Shown piece by piece: positions 1,794 through 58,543 of a DNA stretch of 64,000 nucleotides. Source of the stretch: Candidatus Kaiserbacteria bacterium (lineage in GTDB: Bacteria; Patescibacteriota; Minisyncoccia; Phycocordibacterales; Phycocordibacteraceae). The stretch is from contig JACRFL010000013.1 of NCBI GenBank assembly GCA_016217905.1, positions 3,184 through 67,183 of the forward strand, written 5' to 3'. Made by a program: the position numbers and the translations under genes. Each line of letters opens with the position of its first letter. Within the stretch, counting starts at the first letter, position 1. Below the pieces are notes generated by a model. That model did no database searches. It saw only the letters and a list, made by a program, of their open reading frames with translations, and had not been told where the DNA came from.

Positions 1794-3146
1794 ATGTTCG
1801 TCATCCGCCGAGAGCCGCATAACCCGATCCTCGCGCCGCAGCGCGAGCGCCCGTGGGAGGCGCGCGCCACCTATAACCCTTCCGCCGTGCGTACCGAGGA
1901 TGGCGTACGCCTTTTCTATCGCGCATTCGGGGATCCGGACGCTCTCCAGACGCCCATGGCGGGGCTCTCGACTATCGGCACCGCCTTTGCCGAAGACGGC
2001 GTCCATTTCCATTCACGACAGCAGGTCATCGCTCCTGAGGAGCAGTGGGACATATTCGGCTGCGAGGATCCGCGCGTCACGTTCTTTGAGGGACGCTGGT
2101 ACTGCTTTTATACCGCGCTCGGCGGCTACCCTTTCGGCCCCGACAACATCAAGATCGCGGTCGCTATCGGGGATACGCCCGACAACTTTACCGAACGGCA
2201 CCTCATTACTCCCTTTAATGCAAAAGCGGCGACCCTGTTCCCCGAACGCATCGATGGCGATATCGTGTTACTCCTCACCGCGCACACCGATTGGACGAGC
2301 GAGCACCCGCGGCCGACGATCGCCCTTGCGCGCGCGAAACGGATGGAAGATTTCTTTGATCCAGACTATTGGAATCGGTGGCACGCAATACTCGCCGATC
2401 ATGCACTTCCTGAAATGCGCCGCGGTGATGATGATCATGTTGAAGTCGGCGCTTCTCCCCTTCTCACGCCGCACGGCTGGCTGCTCATCTACTCGTATAT
2501 CCAAAATTACTACGACGAACGCAAACGCATCTTTTCGATCGAAGCGGCGCTCCTCGATCGCGACGATCCACAAAAACTCATTTCGCGTACCGAATCAATA
2601 CTCGTGCCGCAGGAATTTTATGAAGCGTATGGCCTCGTGCCGAACATTGTCTTCCCCACAAGCGCGACGGTCGGTGAAGGCGGCCTCCTCGATATCTGGT
2701 ACGGCGCGGCCGACACCGTCTGCGCGAAGGCGAGCGTGAAGCTTCACGATCTCATGCGCGCGCTTGACCCCGATCGGCCGGCGCGCACTTTCATCCGCGC
2801 GCCGCAGAACCCTATTCTCACGGCGAGGGGAAAAGGCTTTGAAAGCAGAGATGTGTTTAATGCCGCCGCCATCGACCTTAACGGCTCGGTCTACATTCTC
2901 TATCGCGCTATGGATCAGGCGGACACCTCGACCATCGGACTCGCCGTCTCGTCTGACGGCATCGCCATTGACGAACGCTTATCCGAGCCGATATACGTGC
3001 CGCGCGCTGATTTCGAAGCGAAGCGCGGAAATCCTGCGGGCAATTCCGGCTGCGAGGATCCGCGCATCGTGCGCATCGGCGACATGCTCCACATGACTTA
3101 CACCGCCTACGATGGCGTCCACTCGCCCGCCGGCGCGATCTCGTAG
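1794..3146 (+). CDS. Tandem GH130 protein, part 1: one full GH130 domain plus the N-terminal half of a second; ends at an in-frame TAG
   Basis: FGCEDPRVTFFEGRWY (domain 1) and SGCEDPRIVRIGDMLHMTYTAYDG (domain 2). TAG at 3144-3146 is in the same frame as ORF 3153..3710. Confidence 0.7.
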   Translation: MFVIRREPHNPILAPQRERPWEARATYNPSAVRTEDGVRLFYRAFGDPDALQTPMAGLSTIGTAFAEDGVHFHSRQQVIAPEEQWDIFGCEDPRVTFFEGRWYCFYTALGGYPFGPDNIKIAVAIGDTPDNFTERHLITPFNAKAATLFPERIDGDIVLLLTAHTDWTSEHPRPTIALARAKRMEDFFDPDYWNRWHAILADHALPEMRRGDDDHVEVGASPLLTPHGWLLIYSYIQNYYDERKRIFSIEAALLDRDDPQKLISRTESILVPQEFYEAYGLVPNIVFPTSATVGEGGLLDIWYGAADTVCAKASVKLHDLMRALDPDRPARTFIRAPQNPILTARGKGFESRDVFNAAAIDLNGSVYILYRAMDQADTSTIGLAVSSDGIAIDERLSEPIYVPRADFEAKRGNPAGNSGCEDPRIVRIGDMLHMTYTAYDGVHSPAGAIS

Positions 3147-3152
3147 ATAAGC

Positions 3153-3710
3153 GTGAGTGACTTTCTTGCACGCCGATGGCAAATGTGGAGCGCGCCGTTT
3201 TTGCTGACGCCCGACAATGTCGACGACAAAGACCTTGCGCTCCTGCCTGAAAAAATCGGCGCAAACTATCTTCTCTATCATCGCGTGAACAATCAAATCT
3301 GCGCCGATCTCCTACCCGACCTCGCCTCGGGCAAGCGGGTGAGCCGCTGTATCGAGGTGATTGGCCCCAGGCGCGGCATGTGGGACGGAGAGAAGGTCGG
3401 CAGTGCAGCCCCTCCCCTCAAGATCGGAGACAAATGGTTGATGATCTATCACGGCGTCTCGCGCCACGCCACCTACCGTCTCGGTGCCGCGCTGCTTGGA
3501 GCGAATGGTACGACGGTTCTTGCGCGCACCGCCGATCCGATCTTCGAACCGCTTGAAGACTATGAAAAGAGGGGCGAGATTGCGAACGTCGTCTTCTCCT
3601 GCGGCGCTGTCGTTCGCGACGATATGCTCTTTCTCTACTACGGCGCCGCCGACAAGGTCATCGGCGTCGCGACCGCGTCGCTCGCGCACATTCTCGATGC
3701 GCTTTCATAA
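3153..3710 (+). CDS. Tandem GH130 protein, part 2: C-terminal half of the second GH130 domain
   Basis: Same frame as 1794..3146, two codons after the TAG, with only a GTG start. LLPEKIGANYLLYHR and LYYGAADKVIGVATA match the C-terminal half of the 616..1791 paralogue. Confidence 0.6.
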   Translation: MSDFLARRWQMWSAPFLLTPDNVDDKDLALLPEKIGANYLLYHRVNNQICADLLPDLASGKRVSRCIEVIGPRRGMWDGEKVGSAAPPLKIGDKWLMIYHGVSRHATYRLGAALLGANGTTVLARTADPIFEPLEDYEKRGEIANVVFSCGAVVRDDMLFLYYGAADKVIGVATASLAHILDALS

Positions 3711-55955: not shown

Positions 55956-55991
55956 CAAAACGCCCCTGTTTGCAGAGTGAAATAACGTCAG

Positions 55992-57812
55992 TTAACGAAC
56001 CTCGTATCCGGCATTTTTGAGCGCCCCGGAAACTCGCTCCATGGTGCCGTTTATCTCCTCGTCGGTAAGCGTCCGTTCCGTGGACTGGAAGACGAGATGG
56101 AATGCAAGCGAGACTCTTCCTTCCTTCTCGAACCGATCGAATTGGTCGAGACGTACGAGAAATCCTCTCGCGTTCTTCCGAATGATGGACTTCGTAAGTC
56201 CATCATCAGCGCCCGGCGGTACCCAGAGCGCGATGTCGCGCGTCATAAACGGGTACGCAGAAAACGGTCTGTAGACACCGAGCACGGGTCGCTTCGGCTC
56301 ATACGCCGTGCCGTAGTCTTCGAGCTTCGCGATGGAAAGATTGTCGACTGTGCCCGCCGCGTCGCCCCATTCTGGTATGCGCTCGGTCATGCGCAATTCG
56401 AGATATTCGCCCTCTTTCGGGAATACCGTGCCGACTTCAAAAAGTTTCGGCTTCTGATTCGGAGCAAGCACCAGAGGCGAGTACTGTTTCGCTCGTGCAA
56501 GCGCATCATTCAAATTATCTTCAAGGCTCGTTCGGAGTGCCGGCATATTTTTGTCAAGAGGATTCGCAAGCAGCACGTCGCCCTTCGGAGCAAACGATTG
56601 CGTCGAGACTTCGGTGAACCCCTGCTCCACCAGCTGGTCCTTCATCCGCTCGACGCCGCGATAACGCGCTTGGTCGGGCACGCCGGCAATCGGCGGGAGC
56701 TCGGTGGCGGGCACGCGATCATAGCCGATGAGGCGTCCGACTTCTTCAACGAGGTCTTCGGGGATAGCAAGATCGGTGCGTTCGAAGGGCGGCGCAACGA
56801 TGAACGTTTCTCCTTCGGTTTTCGTTTCGAGCCCGAGACGCACGAAGGCGCTCTTGACTTCTTCACGCGAAAAAACCGCGCCGAGCACGCGGTTTATTTT
56901 ACCGAGCGAAACGGACACCGCAGGCGCGGGCGGAGGTGACGCGGGATATTCATCAACGACTCCGACGACTTCCCCGCCGGCGATTTCTGTAATAAGAGCA
57001 AGTGCGTCGCGCATTCCGTACGCAGCAAGTTCGAGATGCGGGCGATTCTGGAAGCGCGCGCTCGCCTCGGTGAAGAGCTTGAGTGCCTGCGCGGTGCGGC
57101 GCACGCTTGTGCCGTCGAAGTTCGCCGATTCGACGATGATGTCCGTCGTGGCGGCAGTCACCTCGGCCGCCTTCCCGCCTTTCACGCCCGCGATACCGAT
57201 GGCTGCGTCGCGCTGCGCGTCGGTGATAAGGAGTGTTCCTTTGGGGAGTGTGTATTCCTCGCCCGTCAGTGTGATTATTTTCTCGCCCTCTCTTGAGGCG
57301 CGCACACCGATGACGTATCTTCCCTCTTTGCCGATAGCACGAGCCGCGTCAAACGCGTGGAGCGGCTGGCCGACATTCAGCATCACGTAATTGGTCGCGT
57401 CGACGATGTTGTTAATCGAGCGTTGTCCGATCGTTTCAAGCGCTTCCTTGAGCCAGCTCGGTGAAGGTCTGACTTTCACATTGCGCACGAGTGCGCCCAT
57501 GTAGCGTAGACACTTTTTCGGGTCCTCGATCTCGACCGAAAGTGATGTGGGACGTACGACGTCCCACGCGGGCAGCGCCTCGCGAAGCGGGTCGCTTTTG
57601 AGCGGGATGTCGAGTATCGCGGAGAGCTCACTTGCGATCCCGCGATGGCAGAGACAGTTCGCGGCGCGGTTGGGCAATACTTTTATATCCATCAAATCAC
57701 CGGTCGATTCTTCGATCTCAAACGCATGGAAGGTGAATGCGTCGGCAACTATCTCCGCCTTCGGCAAAGACGTATCAAAATAGTTCTGGAGCCATTTCAG
57801 AGAGACTTTCAT
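55992..57812 (-). CDS. pheT: Phenylalanyl-tRNA synthetase beta subunit, short form
   Basis: B1, B3/4, B5 and FDX-ACB-like regions recognisable. 606 aa with no N-terminal OB tRNA-binding domain. Confidence 0.9.
57547..57567. repeat. Palindromic element family C copy inside pheT
   Basis: GTGGGACGT-ACG-ACGTCCCAC. Encodes WDVVRPT, a different frame from the trmD copy. Confidence 0.85.
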
Positions 57813-58543
57813 ACTCGGTTTTCATCAAACGCATAATTGAACCGGATGTCACCCGAATGGAAAAGGCGAACATCAGGCGCGCCGTATTTGACCATGAGTA
57901 AACGCTCTATGCCCCCTCCAAAAGCAAATCCTTGATATTTTTTCGGATCGACGCCTGCGCTTTCAAGTACGCTCGGGTGCACCATGCCCCCGCCTGACAT
58001 CTCGAGCCATTTCCCCTCTTTCCCGACTGGCTCGAACCATGCGTCTATTTCGACGGAGGGTTCGGTGAAGGGAAAGAACGAGGGACGGAAGCGCGCTCAT
58101 GAACGTTCTCCGAGATATTCGCGATAAAATTTTTCAATCGTCCCCTTGAGGTGCGCGAGCGTTATGTCCGTACCGACCGCGAGCCCTTCGAGCTGATAGA
58201 ACTGTGCTTCGTGCGTCGCGTCGGTCGCTTCATTGCGGAAAACTTTCCCCGGCACGATGATGCGGTAGGGCGGCTCGATTCCCTTCTTCATCTGCTGCTC
58301 CATATACCGTATCTGGACGGGCGAGGTGTGCGTGCGAAGGACCTTCCCCGGCTGGTCCTTGATCCAAAACGTATCCTGCATGTCGCGCGACGGATGATCC
58401 GGCGGTACATTCAGCGCGGTGAAGTTGTGCCACTCGTCTTCAAGTTCGGGGCCATACGCGATGCCGAAGCCCATGCGGCCGAAGATATCCGCCATCTCGC
58501 GGATGGCGATAGTGAGGGGATGGAGGCGTCCCGACTGGTTCAT
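57809..58543 (-). CDS. pheS: Phenylalanyl-tRNA synthetase alpha subunit, interrupted by an in-frame TGA at 58097-58099
   Basis: Track ORFs 58097..58915 (real ATG 58543) and 57809..58000 are in one frame. The start-less segment between them encodes [18 protein letters not shown] (motif 2). Motif 3 is [11 protein letters not shown]. Confidence 0.85.

Follow-up and report, generated by a model that had tools for sequence, protein, structure and literature searches.

Three in-frame stop codons in a Candidatus Kaiserbacteria contig: a probable nonsense mutation in a lipase-like gene and two probable discrepancies of the deposited consensus

The window analysed here is a stretch of 64,000 nucleotides (nt) of contig JACRFL010000013.1 (positions 3,184 to 67,183 of the forward strand, assembly GCA_016217905.1) and comprises about 46 genes, a set obtained with a codon-model gene call and corrected by gene calls on the contigs retrieved from a second assembly. 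Exact protein look-ups identified it as part of a Candidatus Kaiserbacteria metagenome-assembled genome (MAG) deposited in GenBank with locus tags HY972_*, the contig having 76.6 kb. Three of its genes are interrupted by a stop codon: a two-domain GH130 gene by TAG at 3144 (site 1), a secreted LCAT/lipase-like gene by TGA at 8887 (site 2) and pheS by TGA at 58097 (site 3). The three stops had been reported in a first-pass annotation made from the sequence and were confirmed at these positions; each of them breaks one gapless collinear frame, and the Pfam matches continue across it. That annotation also held that one of the interrupted genes is essential, which is the case of pheS. Its view of the stops as a single pattern with one cause has to be given up. 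In all probability they have no common cause and none of them is recoding, being one real nonsense mutation at site 2 and, at sites 1 and 3, two discrepancies that only the deposited MAG shows. Three interrupted genes among about 46 is above the expectation for a clean genome; the second assembly bears out just one of them.

The second assembly comprises seven Logan contigs (L001 to L007), all of them from run SRR12113407 and retrieved through exact protein look-ups. The protein of pheT (55992..57812, reverse strand), which is identical in both assemblies, served to retrieve L001. The seven contigs cover 26,518 bp of the window (41%) with no gaps and two mismatches, at 3145 and 58099, and these two are precisely the bases that make the stops at sites 1 and 3. 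Synonymous or missense differences between the MAG and the Logan contigs were found nowhere in these 26.5 kb. Very probably the contigs and the MAG derive from the same read set. Of the truncated products, those of sites 1 and 3 are present in the NCBI record only and in no Logan assembly, whereas the N-terminal fragment of site 2 is present in both. Sense codons in read-derived sequence, which the first-pass annotation had named as the finding that would speak against its pattern, were identified at two of the three sites (1 and 3) and not at site 2.

The first interrupted gene (1794..3710, forward strand) encodes a two-domain GH130 protein similar to beta-1,4-mannooligosaccharide phosphorylases. 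The in-frame TAG (3144..3146, forward strand) lies inside the second GH130 domain, where the Pfam match of the N-terminal fragment runs to about profile position 150 and that of the C-terminal fragment comprises positions 155-318 of 320. This stop was identified in the deposited MAG only; L002 has TCG (Ser), the sole difference being base 3145 (A in the MAG, C in Logan), and contains the gene intact with 638 amino acids (aa). GenBank protein MBI5405895.1 is the 450-aa N-terminal fragment, ending in ...AGAIS. With regard to its surroundings, three GH130 domains stand in tandem in window 625-4453 (forward strand), one in a single-domain gene (625..1791) and two in the interrupted one, which is followed by a phosphomannomutase/HAD-like gene with a TAATG overlap at 3708-3712. 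From the predicted domains, the tandem and the latter gene look like a compact mannoside-phosphorylase cassette.

The gene interrupted at site 3 is pheS. The in-frame TGA (58097..58099, reverse strand) was again identified in the deposited MAG only; L001 has AGA (Arg), the sole difference being base 58099 (A in the MAG, T in Logan, on the forward strand), and contains an intact short form of pheS (57809..58549, reverse strand, 244 aa) whose own TGA overlaps the start of pheT in an ATGA. The Pfam match comprises profile positions 12-156 in the N-terminal fragment and 161-244 of 246 in the C-terminal one. The stop stands directly before class-II motif 2, and truncation removes motifs 2 and 3. 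A product cut at this site would be without the catalytic core, and a nonsense allele of this kind would be lethal if it were the sole copy. The C-terminal piece is found in GenBank as MBI5405940.1 (window 57812-58048, reverse strand), a 79-aa 'hypothetical protein' with an ATA start (MDAWFEP...). Apart from the stop, the alignment of this PheS to the Escherichia coli protein (3pco_A, 327 aa) begins at E. coli residue 102, so that the N-terminal coiled-coil arm is missing.

At sites 1 and 3 the stop is the derived state, because the codon is a sense codon in the homologues as well as in the second assembly. At the sequence level both sites present what characterizes a consensus discrepancy in a MAG, a different base in the second assembly together with identity elsewhere. 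They would be single-base discrepancies confined to the deposited consensus, the bases at 3145 and 58099 being either consensus or scaffolding errors, which is preferred, especially in the essential pheS, or low-frequency alleles picked by the assembler. We infer errors rather than minority alleles; in the case of pheS an error is favoured because without motifs 2 and 3 no common allele would be viable. The GH130 protein and PheS are almost certainly intact in the cells. It is far less likely that the Logan contigs are wrong instead, since they would then contain just two errors in 26.5 kb, both of them in exactly these two codons.

Local consensus errors without read support have been documented in uncurated MAGs (Chen et al. 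2020, PMC7111523), with the warning that the protein-coding genes in public databases come out truncated or wrong as a result. Sites 1 and 3 are similar to them in that the deposited base is not reproduced by an independent assembly, the flanks are identical and truncated or incorrect genes are found in the public databases. They are different in that repeats and scaffolding points account for most of the published errors, which were recognised by missing read support, whereas sites 1 and 3 are simple substitutions in unique sequence and are known from the consensus only. Consensus errors, one of the explanations left standing by the first-pass annotation, are thereby retained (with minority alleles as the other option) for sites 1 and 3, where Logan has TCG and AGA, and discarded for site 2, where Logan also has TGA.

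Two further origins of the deposited bases were considered and rejected. Chimeric k-mers from a paralogue do not apply, as no other sequence of the window comes close to the 21-mers around site 1 or site 3; an introduction of the stops after deposition does not apply either, as GenBank proteins MBI5405895.1 and MBI5405940.1 already reflect sites 1 and 3. Both discrepancies are an A on the forward strand of the window (C to A and T to A), and both are transversions. The shared A and the absence of other differences in 26.5 kb hint at an artefact of a systematic kind and not at random error, such as ambiguous bases having been rendered as A, two cases being too few for more than a hint.

Several points weigh against this account of sites 1 and 3. 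The remaining 59% of the window lies outside the Logan comparison, and the origin of the MAG from SRR12113407 is presumed from this run having been the sole one returned in all seven successful look-ups. In a comparison of consensus sequences, an error and a real minority allele at 3145 or 58099 look alike. Finally, the two discrepancies both create a stop. A random substitution in the compared sequence does so in only 3.1% of cases, which gives P ~9.5e-4 for two out of two; restricted to changes to A on the forward strand, 5.6% are nonsense and P is ~0.003 (0.056 squared). This nonsense excess is not predicted by random error, although it is softened in part by a selection effect, the window having been flagged because of its stops. 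It is because of this excess only that a small probability is kept on real, tolerated nonsense alleles.

Such alleles could take the form of three real segregating stops, where the MAG assembler took the nonsense version and Logan the sense version at sites 1 and 3, and where the carriers survive as rare, recent or complemented within the population. We consider this unlikely. Natural polymorphism should give far more synonymous and missense than nonsense differences, and the compared 26.5 kb contain none; two random errors that are both nonsense are nevertheless improbable, so that something non-random could be involved. The GH130 gene is dispensable and has paralogous domains adjoining it, and the stop at site 2 is clearly real; the essential pheS, in contrast, would lose motifs 2 and 3, and such a nonsense allele cannot be common. 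The Logan contigs also pass both sites unbroken, and their lack of the truncated products argues in the same direction.

The gene interrupted at site 2 (7483..10224, reverse strand) comprises 913 codons and encodes a secreted LCAT/lipase-like protein. The in-frame TGA (8887..8889, reverse strand) is present in both assemblies and splits the gene into a 445-aa N-terminal fragment, deposited as MBI5405902.1 and also called on L003, and a 3' open reading frame (ORF). L003 is 100% identical to window 8045..10723, the TGA of site 2 included. With Trp in place of the stop, the Pfam match to the LCAT alpha/beta-hydrolase spans it (profile positions 116-355 of 392, 49.7 bits, vs 40.9 bits for the N-terminal fragment alone), so that the 445-aa product ends in the middle of the domain. 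Homologues aligned across the site have 60-79% identity, and all 120 of them present a residue there: Arg in 36, Trp in 28 and other residues in the rest, with a gap in none. The codon is TGG in three of the four nearest genome representatives and CGC in the last, a stop being found in none. The gene has no other lesion, and its frame is still collinear with homologues of 70-79% identity.

The simplest history of site 2 is a TGG to TGA transition in this population, and a recent one because the gene shows no other lesion. It would be a real nonsense mutation in a large and non-essential secreted lipase gene, turning it into a young pseudogene. Both traits of a nonsense pseudogene are present, a stop reproduced in the second assembly with sense codons in the relatives and a truncation inside the hydrolase domain. 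The gene is presumably non-functional, with loss of its activity, and its product would be at most slightly rescued by ordinary low-level misreading of UGA by the tryptophan transfer RNA (tRNA-Trp). Among known situations, site 2 is similar to the split genes and young nonsense pseudogenes of reduced symbiont genomes, with a single transition from TGG, no other lesion and a non-essential, fast-evolving surface-protein family; nothing notable sets it apart, the loss of function being here a presumption. Recent pseudogenisation, also among the earlier explanations, is thus retained for site 2, with its stop in both assemblies and TGG or CGC in the relatives, and not for sites 1 and 3.

The three stop codons are all used as terminators in the window, where TAA ends 22 of the 46 genes, TAG 12 and TGA 12. 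The genes ended by TGA are rpoB, rpoC, dnaE, pheS and eight more. Domain coverage is complete in rpoB, rpoC and dnaE; the rpoB product has 1058 aa vs 1059 in its orthologues, and the rpoC product 1239 aa vs 1239-1240. The TGA of rpoB (31578..31580, reverse strand) is followed by 40 nt and then by rpoC in another frame, and the TGA of rpoC (27818..27820, reverse strand) by the start of dnaG one codon on (TGACCTATG, 27820-27812). A third genuine TGA (20667..20669, forward strand) belongs to the coupled pair TGATG at 20667-20671, which the first-pass annotation had correctly described together with ATGA at 20947-20950 and at 23317-23320, and the gene calls on L004 agree. The genes rpoB, rpoC, dnaG and rpoD lie head to tail in window 24860-34754 (reverse strand), the last three sharing one frame. 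A further same-frame lesion along rpoC, dnaG and rpoD (TGA-CCT-ATG) was considered and rejected, the domain architecture being that of three complete separate genes.

In code 4, UGA is read as Trp, as in Mycoplasmatales and some insect endosymbionts, whereas in code 25 it is read as Gly, as in Absconditabacteria and Gracilibacteria, two lineages of the Candidate Phyla Radiation (CPR), or Patescibacteria. A genome-wide reassignment of this kind, of TGA by code 4 or 25 or else of TAG, would agree with an organism that belongs to the CPR, some other lineages of which have reassigned a stop, and with an in-frame TGA that aligns with Trp at site 2. It is nonetheless barely credible here. TGA is a genuine terminator in 12 of 46 genes, among them rpoB and rpoC, whose products are within one residue of the orthologue lengths, and TAG ends another 12 genes as well as being involved in one of the interruptions. 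Internal TGAs are only two in about 46 genes, one at a column of W and R (site 2) and the other corresponding to AGA in Logan (site 3), where the sense allele is Arg and not Trp or Gly. Because of the terminator usage, reassignment is already refuted within the window; the genome uses the standard code, and the rejection of codes 4 and 25 in the first-pass annotation was right.

Decoding of the stops, by context-dependent readthrough or by a suppressor tRNA encoded elsewhere in a lineage that tolerates nonsense alleles, is very improbable too. What readthrough, selenocysteine and pyrrolysine have in common with the present genes is an in-frame UGA or UAG in an otherwise intact ORF. The differences are more numerous: the stop is not conserved, no selenocysteine insertion sequence (SECIS) or other Rfam element accompanies it, no Cys is aligned with it and the genes are not methylamine methyltransferases. 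ARAGORN identified no tRNA gene in the 64-kb window, hence no CUA or UCA anticodon there; no release-factor gene was identified in the window, and no Rfam family, SECIS included, was matched in it.

The base after the stop is A at site 1, C at site 2 and G at site 3. In E. coli work a UGA followed by C is the weakest termination context, and Trp is what near-cognate misreading of UGA inserts. Site 2 presents that context and Trp as its ancestral residue, and the two internal TGAs, followed by C and G, are unlike the terminator TGAs, 11 of 12 of which are followed by A or T. However, C or G after the stop is also the expectation for random positions in coding sequence of 58% guanine plus cytosine (GC). 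The 100 nt from each stop were compared with shuffled sequences, with fold z-scores of -0.93 at site 1, +1.00 at site 2 and -2.20 at site 3. There is thus no significant structure 3' of sites 1 and 2. The region 3' of the pheS stop folds somewhat better than shuffled, but the sense allele has the same sequence in the folded region. Signs of selenocysteine were looked for and none was found, there being no SECIS in the window and no stable fold at site 2, and the aligned residues being W or R at site 2 and Arg at site 3.

Further points stand against decoding. No relative shares any of the stops, two of the three codons are sense codons within this population, with Ser and Arg instead of one consistent residue, and TGA and TAG terminate 24 of the 46 genes. 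With stops that are not conserved, neither a tRNA nor an Rfam match in the window and no convincing 3' structure, the readthrough or suppressor tRNA proposed earlier finds no support. Of the defining features tested (terminators, conservation, SECIS and aligned residue), at least one disagrees with each of the known systems, be it code 4 or 25, selenocysteine, pyrrolysine or programmed readthrough. A narrower version, where the nonsense alleles of pheS and GH130 coexist with the sense alleles and are tolerated via suppression of UGA and UAG by a suppressor tRNA or weak release factors encoded elsewhere, would also explain why the assemblies differ by nonsense changes only; its probability is likewise very low.

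The separate origin favoured for the three stops calls for caution with public MAG records, which hold single-base lesions that split genes and that can be mistaken for recoding from sequence alone. An essential aminoacyl-tRNA synthetase subunit is here annotated as fragments, and the lesion of pheS propagates into the protein databases. Most of the question is settled without experiments once the record is set against an independent assembly built from the same reads. If a CPR symbiont did tolerate nonsense alleles, this would have a bearing on how changes of the code begin; nothing found here supports it.

Exact-pattern scans gave no match for site 2 in the species-representative genomes and the metagenome contigs of the Joint Genome Institute (JGI), and none for site 3 in the JGI metagenome contigs; with no match, the population is taken as absent from the species-representative genomes and the JGI collection. 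A search of the literature for accession SRR12113407 gave no paper that names it. Look-ups of Logan contigs were without result for five ORFs (10217-11965, 10274-11965, 4485-6152, 24860-26101 and 36499-38448). Three of these five loci adjoin a retrieved contig that ends inside the gene, and the long genes looked up, including those of the rpoB and rpoC orthologue comparison, are singleton clusters present in NCBI only. On both counts, the unretrieved ORFs give no indication of missense variants.

Other features of the window lie apart from the three sites. The ORF at 41411-42382 (reverse strand) comprises a NusB and a NUDIX hydrolase domain fused in one frame. After it comes RNase III in another frame, with an overlap of about 150 nt between its stop-to-stop ORF and the fused one. 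A frameshift at these overlapping ORFs (40.7-42.4 kb) was considered and rejected, given the RNase III gene and the NusB-NUDIX fusion. Window 48244-51063 (reverse strand) encodes a 939-aa protein with no Pfam match, whose composition is unusual (GC of 0.63 at codon position 2). It comprises poly-Gly runs, about six repeat modules of about 95 aa (motif ...C.L.ASP....G....LSWTT..A..FSI...IGSV.P...), poly-Pro linkers, a membrane-spanning segment and a C-terminal domain, and is probably a cell-surface protein. Finally, window 60000-64000 (L007) has a GC of about 50% vs 58% elsewhere, and its genes and those just past the window present weak matches to cohesin, dockerin and Big_13; this region may be an acquired island of surface proteins.

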